From positions 243,877 through 307,876 of the forward strand of contig CALMIO010000002.1 in NCBI GenBank assembly GCA_937864035.1: 64,000 bases of DNA, given 5' to 3'. The stretch comes from an uncultured Pseudomonadota bacterium (GTDB lineage Bacteria > Bdellovibrionota_C > UBA2361 > CALMIO01). Both the position numbers and the translations under genes were made by a program. Each line of letters starts with the position of its first letter. The first letter of the stretch is position 1. Under the pieces are notes generated by a model, which was given only the letters and a program-made list of their open reading frames with translations, did no database searches and was not told the origin of the DNA. This document shows positions 12,169 to 33,439 of the stretch, one piece after another.

Positions 12169-12486
12169 TTAAACCTTAATCTGGAGATAATAGGCAATAA
12201 CAAAGGAAAAAATTACCAAGGTTTCCATAAAAACCAAGCCTAAAATCATCGGAATAAAAAGCTGTCCAGAAGCCGACGGGTTGCGTCCAATTGAATCAAG
12301 CGCTGAAGCGACCGCTTTCCCCTGAGCCAAGCCGCAACCAAGAGCCGCCAAACCTATCGCCAAACCAGCTCCGATCGAAATCAAGCCTCCGGCTGTTATT
12401 TGGGAAGTATGCTCATCAGCAAAAACCGGATCAACAAACACACAAACAAAAACAACAAGGGTTAATAATAGAAAAGGGTATTTCAT
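12169..12486 (-). CDS. atpE: ATP synthase F0 subunit c with an approximately 25-aa signal-peptide-like N-terminal extension
   Basis: GAGLAIGLAALGCGLAQGKAVASALDSIGRNPSASGQLFIPMILGLVFMETLVIF is a canonical c-subunit hairpin with the essential carboxylate (E in FMETL). Confidence 0.85.
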   Translation of the reverse strand: MKYPFLLLTLVVFVCVFVDPVFADEHTSQITAGGLISIGAGLAIGLAALGCGLAQGKAVASALDSIGRNPSASGQLFIPMILGLVFMETLVIFSFVIAYYLQIKV

Positions 12487-12702
12487 CTTAGTTTTTTAAA
12501 GCTTTAACATTATCCGTTCGAATTTTTCGTTCTAAAAACAGCTTAATAAAAATCAAAAGAAGCTTTGATCTGTTTTTAGATACGAAATCGTTAATTAAAC
12601 GAGAAGATGTAAGTTAAAAGAAAATCGATAAAGTGTCAATTGTACTGAAATTTTACGATAATTTAGGGGGCAAATACAATCTTTGATTAAGATTATTCTA
12701 CC

Positions 12703-13488
12703 TTAGTGATGCTCCTCACTACTATGAGAGGTAGCCAGCAAAATATAAACCATCGTTAGGGTTGTAAAAACAAAGGCCTGCATAAAGGCAACGAAAGTTC
12801 CTAGCGCGTAAAAAGCCGCCGGTACAACATACTTTACTAGGCCGGTAAAAGCCCCAAGCACAATATGATCAGCCTTTATGTTCCAATAAAGCCTGAGGTT
12901 TAGAGTAAGAATTCGAATACAGGTACTAACAATTTCAACAACAAAAATTAAGGGAGCAAGCCACCAAATTGGACCCATAAAGTGTTTCAAATAACCAATC
13001 AGACCGTTCGCCTTTATTCCCTGCCAATTAAAATAACAAAACACCACAAAAGCCAGAGAAACATTAACCCAAACGGTCGTAGTTGCGGACGGCGCTCCGG
13101 GAATTAGACCGATAAGATTTGAAAGAAATATAAAGAGAAAAACTCCCACAACCAAAGGTAGGTGCTCTCTTCGGTTTTCTTTTGACTCTTTGTTTTGCTC
13201 TCCGCCAAGAATTTGATCGTAAAAATCTGTTATTTTTTCAAAAATAAAATCAACCACGCCAAAAAAGGTTGGTTTTTCTGGAGGAATAATTCGTTTTTCA
13301 ATGTTTGAAAAAGACTTAATCTGACCACTCGCATACCTCAAAGAGAGCAACAGACCAGCCATTACCCCAAGGGCAACCATTGATTTGGTTATGTTTACTT
13401 GAGCTTCGCTCTGGTTGTAAAAGGGAAGTTCGCTAAAAAGAGGGGCTATTTTAGCTGAAATGTTATCTAGATACGTATGATCTGACAT
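12703..13488 (-). CDS. atpB: ATP synthase F0 subunit a
   Basis: Polytopic membrane protein with conserved Arg region RILTLNLRLYWNIKADH. Gene order atpI-like, a, c, b. Confidence 0.8.
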   Translation of the reverse strand: MSDHTYLDNISAKIAPLFSELPFYNQSEAQVNITKSMVALGVMAGLLLSLRYASGQIKSFSNIEKRIIPPEKPTFFGVVDFIFEKITDFYDQILGGEQNKESKENRREHLPLVVGVFLFIFLSNLIGLIPGAPSATTTVWVNVSLAFVVFCYFNWQGIKANGLIGYLKHFMGPIWWLAPLIFVVEIVSTCIRILTLNLRLYWNIKADHIVLGAFTGLVKYVVPAAFYALGTFVAFMQAFVFTTLTMVYILLATSHSSEEHH

Positions 13489-13528
13489 GCTCTATTTATC
13501 AAAAGCGTATTCTTAAATCTCGATAACT

Positions 13529-13954
13529 TTAGATAAATCTTGGAAAAATCGCAAGCAAAAGAGCGGCTGGGATAAAAGTCGCATAGCCAACCAACAGATT
13601 AATTCCCGCCGCCCCGCCAACAAAGAGAATTAAAAGTGGAAAAACCAATAAAAATAAGAGCTTTAAAAAAACAACCATAACCATTAAAACGGGGGAAAAA
13701 ATCCCTCTTCTTAAAAAAAACAGCGCCACCCCAGAAACAAGAGCCAAGTTTATCCATAACAACCCGCAACCCAGCGCGAAAAATCTCGGCTCCAAAAACT
13801 GATAAAAAACCACCTTTTCGAAAAAAGGATGCTTTAAAAGAAAACAACCGGTCGTCAAAAAAATCTGTAAAACAAGTAAATTTTTAAAAAATGGCTTTGT
13901 TGTTGGGTGTTTTTTTGCGATCTCTTGTAATGCTTGAAAAACTTGTGATGACAT
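13529..13954 (-). CDS. Small 4-TM membrane protein, AtpI/AtpZ-like, first gene of the F0 cluster
   Basis: 141 aa, hydrophobic, positioned where atpI usually sits. Positional inference only. Confidence 0.35.
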   Translation of the reverse strand: MSSQVFQALQEIAKKHPTTKPFFKNLLVLQIFLTTGCFLLKHPFFEKVVFYQFLEPRFFALGCGLLWINLALVSGVALFFLRRGIFSPVLMVMVVFLKLLFLLVFPLLILFVGGAAGINLLVGYATFIPAALLLAIFPRFI

Positions 13955-14126: not shown

Positions 14127-15710
14127 TTGCTAGCAATACCCGTGAACAACCTCAGCGATAAGACAGAAAATCAATTTATTTTTGAGGAATTTATAAGGTT
14201 CATAAAAAACTCTACCGAAAGCGAACTTTTCAGAGCGTATTTCGATCCAATCAAACTAGAATCTTTTGACAGAGATTTAAGAAAGGTTGCTCTTAAAGTT
14301 CCCTCAAAATTTATAAGCTCCCAACTGCAAAATCGCTTTAAAGATATGATCAAAGCTTCTTTTGAGCAAATTGCTGGTATTGCTAATATTAATATAGAGT
14401 TTTTAACAGATCCATCCTTGAGGCCGTCCGCCAGCGAACCTCAGATTGGCGGCAATTCTCATTATATTGGCGACAAAAAAAGTGGGGGTCGCAACGGGGC
14501 AACTTCTGCTTCCTATCTTTTTCGGGGTCTTGAACCAGCTAGATCTCCCTCAAAGATTAACGGCTCAAGGAGTTCTTTAATAAGAGCGACCAATAGCGGT
14601 TTGCCCAGAAGATCTTTTCATAGTCCAAACTCTCAAAATTCGGAGGAAATTCAATCCTCTTTTGAAAAAGAGCTTTTTGAAAAACCAAACTTATTGCCGA
14701 ACTATACCTTTGATTCTTTTGTCGTTGGAAATAGCAACCAGTTTAGCCACGCCGCGGCTTATAGCGTCGCTCAGAATTTGGGGGCAGGCTATAATCCTCT
14801 CTTTATTTATGGCGGTGCCGGGCTTGGTAAAACTCATTTGCTTCACGCTATCGGCAACCATCTTATTAAAACCGCTCCCCATAAAAACGTTATTTATTTG
14901 TCATCTGAGTCTTTTACGAATCTTTTAATCAATGCTTTGCGCTCTGGAAAAATGGAGCTTTTTAAAGAAAGGCTTCGAGGAGTTGATCTTTTGCTAATCG
15001 ACGACATTCAATTTATGCGAGGCAAAGAGAGAACTCAGGAGGAGTTTTTTCACACCTTTAATGCTCTTTATGGGGCAAAAAAACAGATTGTTTTAAGCTC
15101 TGACGCTACCCCAAATTCAATTGGCGGCTTAGAAGAGCGGCTTAAAACTCGTTTTTCATGGGGTCTTATTGCCGACATACAACCCCCAGATTATGAAACC
15201 AGAGTGGCTATTTTGAGAAAATTGGTGGCGGCTCATTCTATTCAGATTGATGATCAGATAATAAACTACATAGCTAACAATCTCTCTTCAAATGTTAGAG
15301 AGCTCGAAGGGGCAATCATTAGGCTGAGAGCGCTTTCGAGCTTAATTAAACCCGACAACCTCTCTTTTGAAAAGGCGGTTTCTATTCTTCGCCCCCTTAC
15401 TCAGCAAAAAATGGTTTCGTTGAGCGTTAATGATATTAAACGAGCGGTTTGTTGTCATTTTAACATTAAAGTTTCCGAACTTTGCTCTAAACTTCGCTCA
15501 AGAAATATATCTTTTCCTAGGCAGATCGCTATGTATCTTTGCCGAAAACATACCGTGCTTTCTTATCCAGAAATAGGCGCTCAATTTGGCGGAAGAGAGC
15601 ATTCTAGTGTTATTCATAGTTGTAGTGTTGTTGGAGAACGACTATTAGTTGACGACAAGCTTATAATGACAGTTAAAGAAATAGAGAAAACATTTTTTGG
15701 AGACAGCTAA
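14127..15710 (+). CDS. dnaA: Chromosomal replication initiator DnaA (TTG start)
   Basis: AAA+ Walker A GGAGLGKTHLLHAIGN, Walker B LLLIDDIQF, sensor regions, and C-terminal DnaA-box-binding domain (VSYPEIGAQFGGREHSSVIH). Confidence 0.92.
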   Translation: MLAIPVNNLSDKTENQFIFEEFIRFIKNSTESELFRAYFDPIKLESFDRDLRKVALKVPSKFISSQLQNRFKDMIKASFEQIAGIANINIEFLTDPSLRPSASEPQIGGNSHYIGDKKSGGRNGATSASYLFRGLEPARSPSKINGSRSSLIRATNSGLPRRSFHSPNSQNSEEIQSSFEKELFEKPNLLPNYTFDSFVVGNSNQFSHAAAYSVAQNLGAGYNPLFIYGGAGLGKTHLLHAIGNHLIKTAPHKNVIYLSSESFTNLLINALRSGKMELFKERLRGVDLLLIDDIQFMRGKERTQEEFFHTFNALYGAKKQIVLSSDATPNSIGGLEERLKTRFSWGLIADIQPPDYETRVAILRKLVAAHSIQIDDQIINYIANNLSSNVRELEGAIIRLRALSSLIKPDNLSFEKAVSILRPLTQQKMVSLSVNDIKRAVCCHFNIKVSELCSKLRSRNISFPRQIAMYLCRKHTVLSYPEIGAQFGGREHSSVIHSCSVVGERLLVDDKLIMTVKEIEKTFFGDS

Positions 15711-16033
15711 AAAACAAAAAAAATAATTCTCCTATTGTCGTTTAAACTCAATATTTAACCCGACAAAAACGAGGCAAGTCGTTAAATTTGTTTTATTTTT
15801 TTCGACAAAAGTTGTTAAATTCTTGTGCGCCTTTTGTTTGTAAGATGTCGTTTATTAAGGTTGTTTTATTTGCTCGTTCTATAAAACATATATTTTTACT
15901 GTTGTTAACTTACAGTTTTTAAACAGTAAAAATATATGTTTTATAGGGGTTTGTTTTGTTTATCTACAACTTTTTGTTGTACTATTACTACTACTATATT
16001 TAATTTATAAATTAATAATATTAAAAAAGTTTT
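15711..16033. other. Candidate oriC: AT-rich dnaA-dnaN spacer with DnaA box TTATCTACA (15960-15968, one mismatch to TTATCCACA) and a downstream AT-rich putative unwinding stretch
   Basis: Seen directly in sequence. Flanked by dnaA and dnaN, the classic location of oriC. Confidence 0.45.
15879..15946. repeat. Perfect 25-bp inverted repeat (arms 15879-15903 and 15922-15946, 18-nt spacer containing GTTAAC)
   Basis: ctataaaacatatatttttactgtt and aacagtaaaaatatatgttttatag are exact reverse complements, followed by a T-rich run. Either a dnaA terminator or an origin-associated hairpin. Confidence 0.7.
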
Positions 16034-17152
16034 ATGCATATAAAAATAAATCAATCCGTCCTCAGTAGCGCCGCTATCAAAATAATCTCTTGTGCCGGAA
16101 AAAAAAGCACCCTGCCAATTCTTGCTAATTTTAAATTAGAAGCAGACAAGAACTACCTTAAAATACTAACTAGCGACCTTGAGATAACAGCAGTTGCTAA
16201 GATAAATTGCGTCTCTTTAAAAAGCGGCACAACAACAGTTAATGCTAAACTTTTTTGCGACCTTATAAGAGAACTTCCAGATGGGGAAATCAACATCTCC
16301 CTCGAGGATGGCGAAAGGTTGGAAATAACATCAGAAAGATCAAAATATAAACTCTCAGTTGTGCCAGCAGAAGGTTTTCCTGATATAAAAGGAACAGATA
16401 TAAAAACAAATGGAAGGATTCGAGCCGGAGATCTTGTTGAGATGATCAATAAAACCATTTACGCGGTTTCTTTTGACCAAACCCAATTAAACATAGGTGG
16501 CATAGGTTGCGACTATAACGAAAATAATTTGATATTTATTGGAACAGATAAAAACAGATTGTCGTTGATTAGCAAAAAAGCAGATGGCCTTAAAATAGAC
16601 AGAGAGAACCTTCCTATATTGCCACGTCGGGTTGCCTCCGAGATTAAACGAATAGTTGAAGCAGTAAACCCAGACGATATTTTAGGAGTCGACATAATAG
16701 ACGGAATGTTTATAGTTGAAGGAGATAACTTTAAAATATCAGCCGCCCTGATCAACGCGAGTTTTATAGGTTATTCTAAATTGCTTTCAGCGGAGGTTGG
16801 AAAAATATGCTCTGTTTTGTCTGGAGAGATCTCATCAGCGATTAAAAGAGCTTCCTTAATGGCAACAGGAGACGATATTAAGGTGGTGGAACTTGAATTT
16901 ACAAAAGATATTATAAACATAAAAGGAGCCTCTCTAGAATCAGGAGAGGGGTTTGAACAGGTTTCTTGTAAATACGATGGAGAGAGTTTTAGGGCTGGTT
17001 TCAACGCTCGATATCTTTTGGATTTTATAAATCCAATAAATTCTGACTCGATAGTGCTTTTTGAATTAAGTGGAGAAAAACGCCCACTAAAGATATATCC
17101 AGCCGATCAAAAAGAATATCTTGGCTTTATAATGCCAATGAGAAACGACTAA
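16034..17152 (+). CDS. dnaN: DNA polymerase III beta sliding clamp
   Basis: 372 aa, MHIKINQSVLSSA N-terminus, position after dnaA, three-domain length. Confidence 0.88.
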   Translation: MHIKINQSVLSSAAIKIISCAGKKSTLPILANFKLEADKNYLKILTSDLEITAVAKINCVSLKSGTTTVNAKLFCDLIRELPDGEINISLEDGERLEITSERSKYKLSVVPAEGFPDIKGTDIKTNGRIRAGDLVEMINKTIYAVSFDQTQLNIGGIGCDYNENNLIFIGTDKNRLSLISKKADGLKIDRENLPILPRRVASEIKRIVEAVNPDDILGVDIIDGMFIVEGDNFKISAALINASFIGYSKLLSAEVGKICSVLSGEISSAIKRASLMATGDDIKVVELEFTKDIINIKGASLESGEGFEQVSCKYDGESFRAGFNARYLLDFINPINSDSIVLFELSGEKRPLKIYPADQKEYLGFIMPMRND

Positions 17153-28156: not shown

Positions 28157-31100
28157 TTATAAGGCTTTTTCTGATCCCAGGCGCAATAAAGATTCTTTTA
28201 AAAAACCTCCCCAAGCAGTTTTGGCTTCGAGTAGTTTTCTAGATTCGCCCTGAAAAACTATTTTTCCACCTTCCTCTCCCGACTTTGGTCCAAGCTCAAT
28301 GATCCAATCGGCGTTAGCCAATGCGATCTCGTTATGTTCGATCATAATGATGGTGTTTCCCGAACTAGCTAATTTTTTTAGAAAAGCCATCAGTTTGGCA
28401 ACATCGCTATTGTGCAAACCGGTAGTTGGTTCGTCCAAGATAAATAAGGTGTTGGATGCGTTTTCGATTGCTAACTGCTCTGCTAGTTTAATTCTTTGGC
28501 TTTCGCCTCCAGAGAGTGAGTTTGAGGGTTGTCCTAAAGTTAGATATCCTAAACCCAATTCACAAACAGCTAATACCACCCGATGAATGTTTTTGTAAGA
28601 AACAAAAAGATTTTTAGCCTCTTCGAAGGTTAAACCTAGTATTTGGTCAACACTCAAGCCTTCAAATTTCGGAATTTTTGCTAGTTCGCCATAGCGCGAA
28701 CCACCGCAAGTTTCACAGATCATTACAGCATCCGCCAAAAAACTCATTTCTAGCTTAATCTCTCCCAAACCTTTGCAAATTTGGCAACGCCCCTCGCCAG
28801 CGTTGAAGGAAAAATAGCTTGGCGAAAAACCTCGAGCTTTAGCCTCTAAGGTATTGGCGAAAATTTTTCTTATATGATCCCAAATTCCGAGATAAGAAGC
28901 CGGTGTTGAGCGAGAGGTTCCACCTATCGGAGATTGATCGACGGTCTTGACACCGATTATTTCAAGATCGCTAGTAATTTCACCGTATGGAGAAAGCCAT
29001 TTTTTTTCTTTGCCATATTTTGAACAGATAGTTTCCGCGATAGTTCCATTTACTAAACTGCTTTTACCAGCTCCAGATACCCCTGCCACCACGACTACGT
29101 ATTGTAATGGAATTTTTAAATCCAATGATTTTAGGTTGTTTAAGCGGGCATTTTTAACGGTGAGCCACTTTGTTAAAAATTTTTTTTCGGAAGCTTCGAC
29201 CTCAATATTATTGAAAGAAAGAGCTTCAGCGACTTTAAAATTTTTTGAGTCTCCGTTATAGATAATTTTGCCACCGTTTTTACCCCCACCCGGACCAACG
29301 TCAATCACATAATCAGCCGCTCGAATTGATTCGAGATCGTGCTCAATCATTAAAACGGAGTTGCCTTGCTCGACCAGTTCCCTGAGAGCCGCTAGCGTTA
29401 ATCTATTTTCGAGAGGATGAAGCCCCGCGCTTGGTTCGTCAAATATATAAAACGTGCCCGTAAGGGGCGAGCCTATAGCTGAGGCAATTCTGAGCCTTTG
29501 CAGTTCGCCGCTAGAGAGTTGGCGGGCGCTTCTGTCAAGCGGCAGGTAACTCAAGCCCAGTTTAATTAACGTTTCTAACCTCCTTTCGCACTCTGAGATA
29601 ATAACCGGAGCTAGCTTCTCTAGTTTGGGAAAGCTTTTAAGGTTAATACTCTTTAAAAAGCCTAGCATTTCGGGGGGCGTTTTTGAGGCGGCTTCGGCTA
29701 TATTAAGACCGTTGATTGTCAAACAGAGAGCTTCCCTTTTTAATCTGGCGCCGCCGCAAAATTTACAAAAAGCGCCAGTTTCTTCAAAGCCGCTTCCCGA
29801 ACAAGATGGACAAGCACCGCGTCTAGAGATAAATGAGAGATCTTCCGGATCGGGTTTTGAAAACCCCCGTCCGCACTCAGAGCAACTTCTTTTGGCGCTA
29901 TAAAGATAAGAATTGTTATCAGAAAAAATTTCGAGCGCTCCTTCTCCAAGAGCTAGCGCCTTGTTAACGCACTCTATTAGCAAGTCAGAGGGAATATTAG
30001 CTGGATTTAATTTGCCAATGACGTATTTAATCCAGTGTTGTTTGTTGCGATCAAGAGAGTCAAGCGCAGAATTTGGCGAACAAAACAGGATTCGATCAAT
30101 TTGAATTTCGTCGTAACCTTCGTCTATTGCTCTTTTAATAATTTCATTGTGCTTGCCCTTTTTGCCGGAAACTATTGGAGCCATTATTCTGATTGATTTA
30201 TTATAGCTCGTTTTGATTTCGGCGGCGATCTCTTCCGCGCTTAGGTCTGAAATTTTGGAAGCAGGGTGATCCGGGCAGTGTTGTAATCCGCATTTGGCGT
30301 AAAGCAATCGCAAATAATTGTAAGCTTCGCTCATTGTGCCCACGGTTGATAATTTTGAGGGCTGAAAGGTGTGCTGATAAACGCAAACAGTTGGAGGTAC
30401 GCCGGAAATATCCAAGATGTCAGGCTTTTTAAGCTCAGAGACGAATTGGCGGGCGTAAGGAGAAAGTGTTTCCAAATATCTTCTTTGCCCCTCGGCGTAG
30501 ATAATATCTTTTGCGATAGTTGATTTCCCAGATCCAGAAACGCCGGTTAAGGCAACTAATTTATAAAGAGGTATTTTGATATCTATGTTTTTTAAGTTGT
30601 GTTCTTTCGCCCCAAAAATTGAAATTTCAGCAAAAGATCCATCCTTTTTGAAATTTTTTTGAATAATTTTATTGGTTTGATCGTCTAATTTTGATCGTTC
30701 TTTAAGAGCAATCTGCGTATAAGATCGTGGATTAAGCTCCCCGCTAATAAAGTCATTCGGAGTTCCAACCTTAATTAATTCTCCTCCCTCAGAGCCTCCT
30801 TCGGGACCAAGATCAATAATCCAATCGGCGCTGGCTATTAGATCAAGATTATGCTCGACACAAATTATACTTTGTCCACGATCTGTTAGCTCGCGAAAGA
30901 GTCGAACTAAGCGAGCAACATCTTTGCGGTGAAGCCCGGTGGTTGGTTCGTCAAATATTAAAAGCGCCTTTTCTTTCTCGGCTTCAACAATAAAGGGGGC
31001 CAATTTAAGTCTTTGAGACTCTCCGCCCGAAAGTTCGCTTAACGGGTGTCCGAGGGTTAAGTGTCCCAAACCTAATTTTTCTAACACCGAAGTTATTTTT

Positions 31101-33439
31101 GTTAGTTCGGGCAGATCGGAAAATAAATCGCCGCAATCAGAAACGGTGGTTGCCAAAAGATCCGCGGCATTTTTGTTGCGAATAAAGCATTCTAGAACCT
31201 TTCCCGAAAAACGCTTCCCGAGGCAAACCTCGCAGGTTAAATAAACATCTGCTAAAAATTGCATCTCTTCCACTAAATAGCCGGCGCCTTTGCAGGTCGC
31301 GCAACGACCGCGGTCGACGTTAAATGAAAAATGTGATTTTGTTAGTTTCCTAAGTTTGGCATCAGGAGAATTGGCGAGTTGGTTTCGTAAAACCTCCCAG
31401 ATTCCAGAATAAGTGGCGATGTTTGAGCGCGGGCTTTTAGCAAGAGAAGTTTGATCAACAAAAAGGATTTCATCAAAAGAATCTTTGCCGAAAATTTGTT
31501 CGCAGGAACCAGGGGAACTTTGAAAAATAACCTCTTTTACTAAGGTGCTTTTTCCGCTTCCGGAAACGCCGCTTATCGCGATCAACTTGGCGGCAGGAAT
31601 GTCAAGATCGAAACCTTTTAAATTACGAGCTCGTGCAGATTTTATGCTAATAGCGATCTTTGCCTTTTCCGAGTTCTCAACACCTTTTTCTGTTTCAAAA
31701 AAGGGCAATTGAAATTTGTTTGATTCTCCAAAATAAACGAGCGAGCCGCCATTGTTTCCAGCTCCGGGACCAATTTCTAGAACATTATCGGCGTTTTTTA
31801 GATATTCCAAATCATGTTCAACTATCAACACGGAATTTCCTTGATCTCTCAGGTCGTTTATAGCGGAGATTAAATTTTTCGTATCCCGCGAGTGCAAGCC
31901 AACAGAAGGCTCATCTAAAACAAACTGAGAAGAAACAATTCCACCGGAAATTGCGGCGGCGAGATTTAGGCGTTGAGTTTCGCCGCCAGATAAGGTGCGA
32001 GCTTGTCGGTCAAGGGTTAAATAACCCAAACCAAGTTTTAATAGATAATCGAGGCGCGACAAAAGATTTTGAAAAACTCCTGTCAGCTCTTTGGGAAAAG
32101 TGGAGAGAAGTAATGCTTTTTGATATTGCGAATCAAACCACGGTTTTAGCTCTTTTATCTGTAGCCTCCAAAGATCGGCGATAGACAATCCGCCAAGCCG
32201 ATAAGCAAGAGCGCTTCGCTTTAATCTTGAACCCTCACAACTCTTACACAAAACCTGAGAGCGATATTTTGAGAGAAAAATTCGCACATGAGTTTTGTAA
32301 CTTTTTTTCTCTAGTTTTTTAAACCAGTGATTTAAGCCAACGTATTCTCTGCTTTTGTGATTTAAAATTAAATCTTTTTGCTCTTGTTTAAGCTTTTTCC
32401 AAGGAGTTTTTAAATTTATTCCTTTAGTTTCACAAAAATTCAACAACCTGCGCCTAAAAATTTTCATTGACGCGCCCGCCCAAGGATGAATAGCGTTTTC
32501 TTCGATCGAAAGATCTTGATTTGGCGCTACCTTGCTCGGATCGATCTCGAGATTAAAACCGAAGCCTTTACACTCTTGGCAGGCGCCATACGGATGATTA
32601 AAGGAAAAAAGAGATGGCTTGGGAGCATCTATTGTTATATCGGAACAACCGCAACTTGGGATTTTGTTGTAGTTTATAACATCTATTTTCGGACCGGTAG
32701 CGCCCTCTGTTTGCGCCACCAAACTAGCCTTTCCGCCAGAAATAGAAAAAGCCGCCTCAACGCTTTCGGCGACTCGCTCTATTTTAAGAGTTTTTTTAGT
32801 TAATCTATCTAGCAAGATCAGAAGATAATCTTGTTCTTTCAAAAATGCGGGGCTTAACTCAGAAAGGTTGAGCAGGTTGCAATTTTTTTGATTTAGAACC
32901 CTTTCATAGCCAAAAAGAATTAACCTTTCAACCTCTTCAACAGGATTTTTTTTCTTAAGATTAAAGTTTGAGCATATATAAAAGATCGCACTTGGAGATC
33001 TTTCAAAAAGTTCAAAGATTTCTCTGGCGATTTTATCGCTGGTCCAATAAGAAAGCTGATTGCCGCAATTGGAACAAAATGGAGCTGCTAAGTTTGACCA
33101 GATGATTTTCAAGTAATCATCAATATTGCTTAAGGTGCCAACGCTCGATCTTGAGCTGGTAATTTTGGTTTTTTGCCTGATGGCGATCGCAGGGCGGACA
33201 TTTTTGATCGAATCAACATTTGGTCTTTTGACCTTCTCAAAAAATTGTCTTGTATAAGGAGAGAATGTTTCCACATAGCGCCGTTGACCTTCGGCATAAA
33301 CCGTATCAAAAGCTAGCGACGATTTGCCGGATCCGGAAACTCCGGTAACAACCGTCATTTGATCGTGAGGAATATCTATAGAGAGATCTTTTAGATTATG
33401 CTCTCTCGCCCCTTTAATTTCTAAATAGCGGCTTTTCAA
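28157..33439 (-). CDS. uvrA: Tandem-duplicated UvrA (two complete UvrA units fused, 1760 aa, four ABC ATPase modules)
   Basis: Four Walker A sites (GVSGSGKSS, GVSGSGKST, GVSGSGKST, GVSGAGKSS). UvrA N-terminal signature appears twice (EHNLKDLSIDIP...YAEGQRRYVETFSPYTRQF near aa 10-65 and EHNLKNIDIKIP...YAEGQRRYLETLSPYARQF near aa 940). Multiple CxxC zinc modules. Confidence 0.9.
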   Translation of the reverse strand: MKSRYLEIKGAREHNLKDLSIDIPHDQMTVVTGVSGSGKSSLAFDTVYAEGQRRYVETFSPYTRQFFEKVKRPNVDSIKNVRPAIAIRQKTKITSSRSSVGTLSNIDDYLKIIWSNLAAPFCSNCGNQLSYWTSDKIAREIFELFERSPSAIFYICSNFNLKKKNPVEEVERLILFGYERVLNQKNCNLLNLSELSPAFLKEQDYLLILLDRLTKKTLKIERVAESVEAAFSISGGKASLVAQTEGATGPKIDVINYNKIPSCGCSDITIDAPKPSLFSFNHPYGACQECKGFGFNLEIDPSKVAPNQDLSIEENAIHPWAGASMKIFRRRLLNFCETKGINLKTPWKKLKQEQKDLILNHKSREYVGLNHWFKKLEKKSYKTHVRIFLSKYRSQVLCKSCEGSRLKRSALAYRLGGLSIADLWRLQIKELKPWFDSQYQKALLLSTFPKELTGVFQNLLSRLDYLLKLGLGYLTLDRQARTLSGGETQRLNLAAAISGGIVSSQFVLDEPSVGLHSRDTKNLISAINDLRDQGNSVLIVEHDLEYLKNADNVLEIGPGAGNNGGSLVYFGESNKFQLPFFETEKGVENSEKAKIAISIKSARARNLKGFDLDIPAAKLIAISGVSGSGKSTLVKEVIFQSSPGSCEQIFGKDSFDEILFVDQTSLAKSPRSNIATYSGIWEVLRNQLANSPDAKLRKLTKSHFSFNVDRGRCATCKGAGYLVEEMQFLADVYLTCEVCLGKRFSGKVLECFIRNKNAADLLATTVSDCGDLFSDLPELTKITSVLEKLGLGHLTLGHPLSELSGGESQRLKLAPFIVEAEKEKALLIFDEPTTGLHRKDVARLVRLFRELTDRGQSIICVEHNLDLIASADWIIDLGPEGGSEGGELIKVGTPNDFISGELNPRSYTQIALKERSKLDDQTNKIIQKNFKKDGSFAEISIFGAKEHNLKNIDIKIPLYKLVALTGVSGSGKSTIAKDIIYAEGQRRYLETLSPYARQFVSELKKPDILDISGVPPTVCVYQHTFQPSKLSTVGTMSEAYNYLRLLYAKCGLQHCPDHPASKISDLSAEEIAAEIKTSYNKSIRIMAPIVSGKKGKHNEIIKRAIDEGYDEIQIDRILFCSPNSALDSLDRNKQHWIKYVIGKLNPANIPSDLLIECVNKALALGEGALEIFSDNNSYLYSAKRSCSECGRGFSKPDPEDLSFISRRGACPSCSGSGFEETGAFCKFCGGARLKREALCLTINGLNIAEAASKTPPEMLGFLKSINLKSFPKLEKLAPVIISECERRLETLIKLGLSYLPLDRSARQLSSGELQRLRIASAIGSPLTGTFYIFDEPSAGLHPLENRLTLAALRELVEQGNSVLMIEHDLESIRAADYVIDVGPGGGKNGGKIIYNGDSKNFKVAEALSFNNIEVEASEKKFLTKWLTVKNARLNNLKSLDLKIPLQYVVVVAGVSGAGKSSLVNGTIAETICSKYGKEKKWLSPYGEITSDLEIIGVKTVDQSPIGGTSRSTPASYLGIWDHIRKIFANTLEAKARGFSPSYFSFNAGEGRCQICKGLGEIKLEMSFLADAVMICETCGGSRYGELAKIPKFEGLSVDQILGLTFEEAKNLFVSYKNIHRVVLAVCELGLGYLTLGQPSNSLSGGESQRIKLAEQLAIENASNTLFILDEPTTGLHNSDVAKLMAFLKKLASSGNTIIMIEHNEIALANADWIIELGPKSGEEGGKIVFQGESRKLLEAKTAWGGFLKESLLRLGSEKAL

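Follow-up and report, generated by a model that had tools for sequence, protein, structure and literature searches.

The window, by which is meant the whole 64-kb stretch of DNA analysed here, carries the gene order dnaA-dnaN-recF-gyrB, all on the + strand, with atpB, atpE and trxB on the - strand upstream of dnaA (all assigned by Pfam). The search for tRNA genes found none, and Rfam at gathering thresholds gave no match across the whole window. The dnaA open reading frame opens with a TTG at 14127, and in the public annotation the gene begins at the GTG at 14142, for a protein of 522 aa. This protein has 100% identity with 'DnaA [Oligoflexia bacterium]' (P0001), and in a search of 5.8 billion proteins the nearest other DnaA is only ~48% identical. 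Identical copies of DnaN are encoded by ENA contig ERZ794913 NODE_4 and by GCA_035324065.1, and three assemblies of the window organism are identical across 21 kb. The source is an uncultured Oligoflexia (Bdellovibrionota) bacterium of a deep-branching lineage.

The features in and around the dnaA-dnaN spacer are as follows.

14127 to 15710, + strand: dnaA (Pfam DnaA_N, Bac_DnaA and Bac_DnaA_C)
15711 to 16033, no strand assigned: the dnaA-dnaN spacer, 323 bp and 77% A+T, the proposed monopartite oriC
15752 to 15821, + strand: iteron-like direct repeats, D1 at 15752-15768 and 15794-15810, D2 (AAGTYGTTAAATT) at 15776-15788 and 15809-15821
15798 to 15825, + strand: candidate counterpart, drifted towards A+T, of a block (block A) conserved in the clade; it reads TTCGACAAAAGTTGTTAAATTC and was placed by MAFFT alignment with six relatives
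15879 to 15903, + strand: left arm of a perfect 25-bp inverted repeat, CTATAAAACATATATTTTTACTGTT
15904 to 15921, + strand: loop of 18 nt, GTTAACTTACAGTTTTTA
15922 to 15946, + strand: right arm of the inverted repeat, AACAGTAAAAATATATGTTTTATAG
15960 to 15968, + strand: DnaA box TTATCTACA, with one mismatch to TTATCCACA, adjoining the unwinding element and oriented toward the trios
15979 to 15996, - strand: DnaA-trio array, top strand GTA CTA TTA CTA CTA CTA, bottom strand 3'-CAT GAT AAT GAT GAT GAT-5'
15997 to 16033, no strand assigned: A+T-rich unwinding element, 97% A+T, extending to the ATG of dnaN
16034 to 17152, + strand: dnaN, encoding the beta clamp (Pfam DNA_pol3_beta domains 1-3)

The strong A+T bias that a sequence-only reading had ascribed to the spacer is borne out by measurement, at 77% A+T against ~60% for the window. 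That reading had also placed a near-consensus DnaA box at 15960-15968 and had called it the only good one; the position is right, and TTATCTACA alone within the spacer has no more than one mismatch to the consensus. A single such box is not in itself significant, since the window holds 16 boxes with up to one mismatch where 11.4 are expected. With the relaxed pattern TTWTNCACA and up to one mismatch there is a mild enrichment, three matches in the 323-bp spacer against a window average of ~0.8.

The distinctive feature lies next to the box. A search for DnaA-trio motifs had been among the checks proposed in the sequence-only reading, and it brings out the array at 15979-15996, with six trios, five of them of the form 3'-(G/A)AT-5', on the strand opposite the box. 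The gap from the box is 10 bp to the GTA and 13 bp to the first CTA. The array is the sole run of at least five [CT]TA units in the window, and no such run arose in 5000 shuffles of the spacer. A stricter pattern, in which a box with up to one mismatch is followed after 0-16 bp by at least four [CT]TA units, occurs once in the 64 kb and in none of 200 shuffles. No 41-mer in the window is less stable than the one beginning at 15995, right after the trios; its dG is -35.4, where the mean is -52.2 (sd 4.3). Both the array and the extreme A+T tract at 15997-16033 had been overlooked in the sequence-only reading.

This arrangement is that of the basal unwinding system of Bacillus subtilis oriC (Richardson 2016/2019, Pelliciari 2021; PMC6669920, PMC8287927), in which DnaA-box 6/7 is combined with DnaA-trios. 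In both, the box points to a 3'-(G/A)AT-5' array on the opposite strand 10-13 bp away, A+T-rich DNA follows, and the whole module is contained in the dnaA-dnaN spacer. Published rules for finding such systems ask for a box with up to two mismatches, a spacer of 0-16 bp (mode 13) and at least three NAN trios (PMC8287927), and the window module falls within them on box mismatch, gap length and trio number. It departs from the B. subtilis system in having one recognisable strong box in the origin, in having neither a second tandem box nor a GC-rich cluster between box and trios, where the gap reads ACTTTTTGTT, and in the closeness of dnaN, which follows the trios after 37 bp; a further difference is the 25-bp palindrome, which ends 13 bp short of the box. 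Most of the control loci show TATCCACA and then GCC. Tandem boxes are found in 57% of genomes and a single box in a substantial minority, and the upstream box alone is needed in vitro (PMC8287927). Among 80 diverse dnaA-downstream regions used as controls, 20 have a + strand box followed after 4-13 bp by YTA trios and A+T-rich DNA, and none has any other orientation of box and trios; the window box points toward its trios, as in those 20.

The same layout recurs in the clade. The relatives used for comparison are six of the nearest DnaA homologues, whose loci share the synteny trxB-atpE-atpB-small ORF on one side and dnaA-dnaN-recF-gyrB on the other; a scan of genome collections for close relatives returned only distant phyla. 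All six have a CTACTA(C/T)TA... array followed by A+T-rich DNA in the dnaA-dnaN spacer. Box-like xTTTxxCACA precedes the array by 10-14 bp in four of them, and in a fifth (L088) if the start of the array is taken nine bases earlier. The suggestion that further DnaA boxes might lie upstream of dnaA does not hold up, as the relatives have 0-0.35 relaxed boxes per 100 bp upstream (0.53 in the window) against 0.6-2.8 per 100 bp in their dnaA-dnaN spacers. Because the spacers are richer in boxes than the upstream regions, the origin of the clade is predicted to be monopartite and to lie downstream of dnaA.

Cumulative GC skew, the other check proposed at the outset, was run on the window, 64 kb of a genome of >1 Mb. 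The curve bottoms out in a plateau (13.4-16.2 kb) that covers the dnaA region, where the sign of the skew also turns. Since the plateau also takes in the region upstream of dnaA, it would allow the origin to lie elsewhere, either in front of dnaA or at some remote locus, with the spacer serving only as a regulatory or promoter region for dnaN. The single good DnaA box in the spacer and the 64-kb extent of the skew analysis lean the same way. However, the 187-bp region upstream of dnaA has one weak box and no trios, the corresponding regions of the relatives are poor in boxes, and the box-trio-unwinding module of the spacer is unique in the window, correctly oriented and conserved. An origin elsewhere is therefore very unlikely, and the proposal of a probable oriC in the spacer stands, now on the combination of box, trio array and unwinding element, the local turn in GC skew and the matching layout in the relatives. 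The small ORFs of the spacer (24-44 aa, low-complexity) are not credible as genes.

The spacer is thus very probably the chromosomal oriC, working through the box-trio-unwinding module. By analogy with the known system, DnaA would bind the double-stranded box TTATCTACA and then oligomerise onto the adjoining bottom-strand trios, whereupon the 97% A+T tract would open and the helicase would be loaded there. Degenerate, A+T-drifted remnants of boxes, together with the iteron-like repeats (15737-15925), would probably give extra weak contacts for DnaA or accessory proteins. The origin would work by an already known module. The explanation as a whole, in which the spacer acts as an origin through a basal unwinding system and the palindrome is a lineage-specific addition that is most likely dispensable for unwinding, can be given a probability of roughly three in four on the sequence comparisons made here.

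The remainder of the box array appears to have decayed. Besides TTATCTACA, two or three spacer sites fit only the relaxed TTWTNCACA with one mismatch, whereas the relatives have 3-10 boxes. Block A of the six relatives, as aligned by MAFFT, is TTTCCGG(C/T)AAAA-N-CTGTGGATAT and ends in a reverse-strand DnaA box; its counterpart in the window holds a weak box, TTTTCGACA (15799-15807). A metagenome scan for the block A pattern gave 120 matches, near the number estimated for chance, and the three that lie near dnaA are in the opposite orientation. GTYGTTWAA, which also occurs at 15737, has three of its 11 window matches in the spacer. Repeats within 15730-15930 that are candidate DnaA sites are GTYGTTWAA, CGACAAAA and TGTTTTAT. 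An altered specificity of DnaA was considered as the cause of the scarcity of boxes and rejected: domain IV reads GGREHSSVIHS in the window and GGRDHSSVIHA in the relatives, and these two differing positions of the alignment (D to E, and the final A to S) are weak grounds for it.

Upstream of the box lies the most conspicuous structure in the spacer. The inverted repeat was correctly described in the sequence-only reading, with 25 of 25 positions complementary around an 18-nt loop. It begins 169 nt after the dnaA stop codon and ends 13 bp before TTATCTACA, and dnaN follows 87 bp further on. With loops of up to 40 nt allowed, it is the sole perfect inverted repeat of at least 12 bp in the 64 kb, the runner-up being 11 bp, and in 20 dinucleotide shuffles of the window the longest perfect inverted repeats were 10-13 bp. 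As RNA it folds with -35.5 kcal/mol (z = -7.9) and as DNA with -22.2 kcal/mol (z = -8.3), and in neither case was any of 200 shuffles equally stable. Although 82% A+T, it ranks in the top four when the 80-nt folds at 12,786 positions of the window are ordered by strength. Rfam at permissive thresholds gave only sub-threshold matches to miRNA-like hairpins in the spacer.

In the relatives there is nothing of the kind. None of the six has a perfect inverted repeat of more than 8 bp in the spacer, and their imperfect inverted repeats are short pairs of inverted DnaA boxes. At the 80 control loci, perfect inverted repeats in the 600 bp after dnaA do not exceed 16 bp, the longest per locus being 8 bp in the median, and the two longest with identifiable content belong to Clostridium origins, where the arms are perfect inverted TTATCCACA boxes. 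No copy of the arm was found elsewhere in the window with up to three mismatches, nor an exact match to it in metagenome or viral collections. The palindrome is evidently real, statistically exceptional and, as far as these comparisons reach, lineage-specific.

Its position is informative. Block B of the relatives is a box pair, TTCACAG(G/T)TTATCAACAG, which in the alignment falls on the palindrome's loop and the first bases of its right arm (CTTACAGTTTTTAAACAG, 15909-15926). Weak box-like sequences lie at the loop and the inner ends of the arms, namely TTAACAACA (15900-15908, - strand), CTTACAG and TTTTAAACA (15917-15925, + strand), and they align with the TTCACAG / TTATCAACAG pair, though local alignments of the apex to the relatives are marginal, with 11 of 300 shuffles (L089) and 23 of 300 (L084) scoring equally. 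The palindrome thus appears to stand where related origins have their DnaA-box cluster. Short inverted repeats built of inverted DnaA boxes are found in similar positions in relatives and in Clostridium. Block A and the trios are 177 bp apart in the window and ~177-190 bp apart in three relatives (manual count). This unchanged spacing argues for the palindrome having replaced sequence rather than having been inserted. Since sequence seems to have been replaced with no change in the spacing between conserved blocks, the palindrome most likely arose by a templated strand switch that converted an older head-to-head box cluster into a perfect inverted repeat. Selection for structure could account equally well for complementarity at all 25 positions.

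Perfect arms are also typical of recent insertions, and a miniature mobile element of the MITE or REP type would account for them. The absence of further copies at the mismatch limits just given, the lack of a visible target-site duplication in the flanks and the block spacing shared with the relatives all speak against such an element. An assembly artefact is opposed by the agreement in sequence of the ENA and NCBI assemblies and by the length of the repeat, which is much shorter than a sequencing read. Either origin for the palindrome is extremely unlikely.

For the function of the palindrome, the sequence-only reading had raised the idea of a dnaA terminator. A stable RNA hairpin with T-rich sequence behind it, located past the end of a gene and on its strand, is indeed what intrinsic terminators look like, and a Rho-independent dnaA terminator would have a role in the origin only in shielding the unwinding module from read-through, a proposal that overlaps with that of an attenuator. 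The hairpin is very stable, as noted above, and its polarity fits transcription of dnaA, the downstream side on the + strand being T-rich (GGGGTTTGTTTTGTTT) and the - strand side A-rich. The window also lacks a hairpin immediately behind the dnaA stop codon, whereas two of the six relatives carry one there, short and G+C-rich, within 35 bp. However, the A+T-rich stem is far longer than that of an intrinsic terminator, 25 bp with four G-C pairs and an 18-nt loop, where the criterion is a short G+C-rich stem and a loop of 3-8 nt, and where the plausible terminators of the window have stems of 9-12 bp and loops of 3-7 nt; terminator-like sites in the window are overall at chance frequency. The 'T-run' that had been described after the stem is T-rich but not an uninterrupted run, as GGGG stands between the stem and the T tract, which is then itself interrupted by G (TTTGTTTTGTTT). 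If two extra G-U pairs are formed, the T-rich tract starts 2 nt after the stem. This tract is partly common to relatives that have no hairpin, and the consensus scan for terminators gave no call. The location also fits poorly, embedded among conserved origin blocks and well past the 35 bp within which the candidates of the relatives lie. Finally, no + strand promoter was detected in the 87 bp between the hairpin and dnaN, so an efficient terminator would cut off dnaN. Termination of dnaA at the palindrome is thus possible but doubtful, a dedicated efficient terminator is unlikely, and a partial attenuator is possible.

A second possibility is that the palindrome functions at the level of DNA, as a cruciform or hairpin or as a site for a symmetric protein, and that it bends or organises the origin, or competes for superhelical energy, in compensation for the decayed box array. 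It lies 13 bp upstream of the sole good box, and the E. coli oriC has the bend induced by IHF at a comparable position, near the box nearest the unwinding element. Its two arms match without exception in a context of 82% A+T, the hairpin of single-stranded DNA is about as exceptional in z-score as the RNA hairpin, and neither the rest of the 64 kb nor any of 86 other dnaA-downstream regions has an equal to it. The head-to-head box-like sequences at its apex also recall the inverted repeats built from boxes in Clostridium and L088. On the other side, it is not conserved in any of the six relatives, and by a rough estimate the 18-nt loop should put a high cost on cruciform extrusion, and the adjacent 97% A+T tract should be the first to melt. 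The analysis turned up no cognate protein and no known motif. Of the consensus motifs for LexA (CTG-N10-CAG, TTAC-N3-GTAA), parS, IHF and CtrA, compared by eye, none fits the palindrome. A binding site for a dimeric regulator, which had also been suggested, is opposed by the absence of the repeat from the relatives and by the 25-bp arms, since dimeric regulators are not known to have operator half-sites of nearly that length. A functional DNA-level element is therefore unlikely. Its more elaborate form would have the palindrome act as a hairpin or cruciform module that replaces the lost box array or an IHF/HU-type bend, or as a supercoil-sensing switch in competition with the unwinding element, in an origin decayed to a single good box; this is quite unlikely, and no direct precedent was found in the literature on palindromes and cruciforms in chromosomal oriC.

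The somewhat favoured reading is that the palindrome is neutral, a palindromised remnant, or at most a weak transcription attenuator. It would most likely be dispensable for unwinding, and if it acts at all, the likeliest way would be as an RNA hairpin that attenuates read-through from dnaA into the unwinding module and dnaN.

The dnaA-dnaN spacer is also the experimentally mapped origin in Bdellovibrio bacteriovorus, where four trios lie beside box 1 (Makowski et al. 2016, PMC5124646). As described in the parts of that account drawn on here, the two origins share the phylum, a monopartite organisation in the dnaA-dnaN spacer (~250 bp in B. bacteriovorus), the trios and unwinding element by box 1 and the order dnaA-dnaN-recF-gyrB. 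Unlike the window, B. bacteriovorus has eight footprinted boxes of the form NN(A/T)TCCACA, two of them within the dnaA gene, and its trios are preceded by a GC-rich spacer; no palindrome is mentioned in those same parts of the account (PMC5124646). The gene neighbourhood differs as well, since dnaA of B. bacteriovorus is preceded by rnpA-rpmH whereas the window and its closer relatives have divergent atpB/atpE.

The analysis thus locates a replication origin for an uncultured, deep-branching lineage of Oligoflexia. Here the box-trio-unwinding module seems to have persisted though the rest of the box array has drifted to 77% A+T, which would make the locus a natural 'minimal' example for the view that sees in this module the ancestral core of bacterial origins. 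If functional, the palindrome would be a rare case of a DNA-structure element in a chromosomal origin; at present it is a curiosity of one lineage.

The closest parallels to the palindrome are in Clostridium. The origins of L004 (C. brassicae) and L006 (Clostridium sp.) likewise have a perfect inverted repeat, with a loop of 15-19 nt, upstream of the unwinding module. Their arms of 14-16 bp are perfect TTATCCACA boxes, whereas the 25-bp arms of the window have no recognisable box outside the inner 5 bp. The top-strand trios of the window (CTATTACTACTACTA) are nearly the same as those at Clostridium and Bacillales loci, and the box variant TTATCTACA occupies the equivalent position in Clostridium tyrobutyricum (L005).

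A composite element, TTTCCGG(C/T)AAAA-N-CTGTGGATAT, is common to the dnaA-dnaN spacers of this Oligoflexia/Bdellovibrionota clade, occurring in the related loci L083-L086, L088 and L089 as well as in the window. It is made up of a motif of no recognised kind and a reverse-strand DnaA box; we know of no origin motif that is matched by its CCGGYAAAA part.

Copies of the composite element in dnaA-dnaN spacers
L083, 4722-4746: composite element
L084, 4522-4548: composite element
L085, 4503-4526: composite element
Window, 15798-15825: composite element, drifted copy

The copy in the window has drifted to TTCGACAAAAGTTGTTAAATTC. The DnaA-trios lie some 177-190 bp downstream of the element, and extra copies of CCGGTA are often found about 33 bp from it. 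In the window, the trio array is separated from the dnaN ATG by only 37 bp (region 15997-16036), compared with 85-207 bp in the relatives; this ATG falls within the predicted unwinding element. Neither an obvious Shine-Dalgarno sequence nor a predicted promoter for dnaN was found at 15997-16036.

The window spacer also carries iteron-like direct repeats (15737-15821 and 15789-15944).

Direct repeats in the window spacer
Starts 15752 and 15794: direct repeat D1
Starts 15776 and 15809: direct repeat D2

Three of the 11 matches to GTYGTTWAA in the whole window lie in the spacer, as do four of the nine matches to TGTTTTAT, two of these four being within the arms of the perfect 25-bp inverted repeat. 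All of these repeats may represent degenerate DnaA sites, or else be recognised by a different protein.

The DNA-binding helix of DnaA domain IV reads GGREHSSVIHS in the window (15590-15625) and GGRDHSSVIHA in all seven relatives. The D-to-E change is at what we take to be a base-contacting position, Asp433 of E. coli, and may be linked to the scarcity of canonical boxes. The window DnaA is also longer (522-527 aa versus 473-515 aa in the relatives). Its domain II is a long linker of low complexity (14400-14700, codons ~95-190), in which S, G, R and P are abundant.

Perfect inverted repeats of 14-16 bp are found in Clostridium dnaA-dnaN spacers, where each is formed by a pair of perfect DnaA boxes in inverted orientation, has a loop of 15-19 nt and sits ~70 bp past dnaA, upstream of the box-trio module.

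Inverted repeats made of DnaA boxes in Clostridium
L004, 5145-5191
L006, ~1909-1955

Upstream of dnaA, the clade has divergent atpB/atpE and a small unannotated membrane-like ORF, then trxB (window 12169-13954; L083-L089), unlike Bdellovibrio bacteriovorus, in which rnpA-rpmH precedes dnaA. In L087 (4423-6619; Bdellovibrionota MAG GCA_050950765.1), dnaN does not adjoin dnaA and a DDE-transposase-like gene comes next after dnaA. The spacer of this locus contains neither DnaA boxes nor trios, and the origin may have been rearranged in this MAG.

The contig L017 (CAZVNH010000270.1) carries the label 'uncultured Thermoplasmatales archaeon'. Its DnaA is bacterial (49% identical), with a box-trio module downstream of the gene, and the contig itself is probably bacterial and mis-binned.

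Across the 64 kb of the window (1-64000), no tRNA genes and no Rfam families at the gathering threshold were found. A 1760-aa ORF occupies 28157-33439 on the minus strand.
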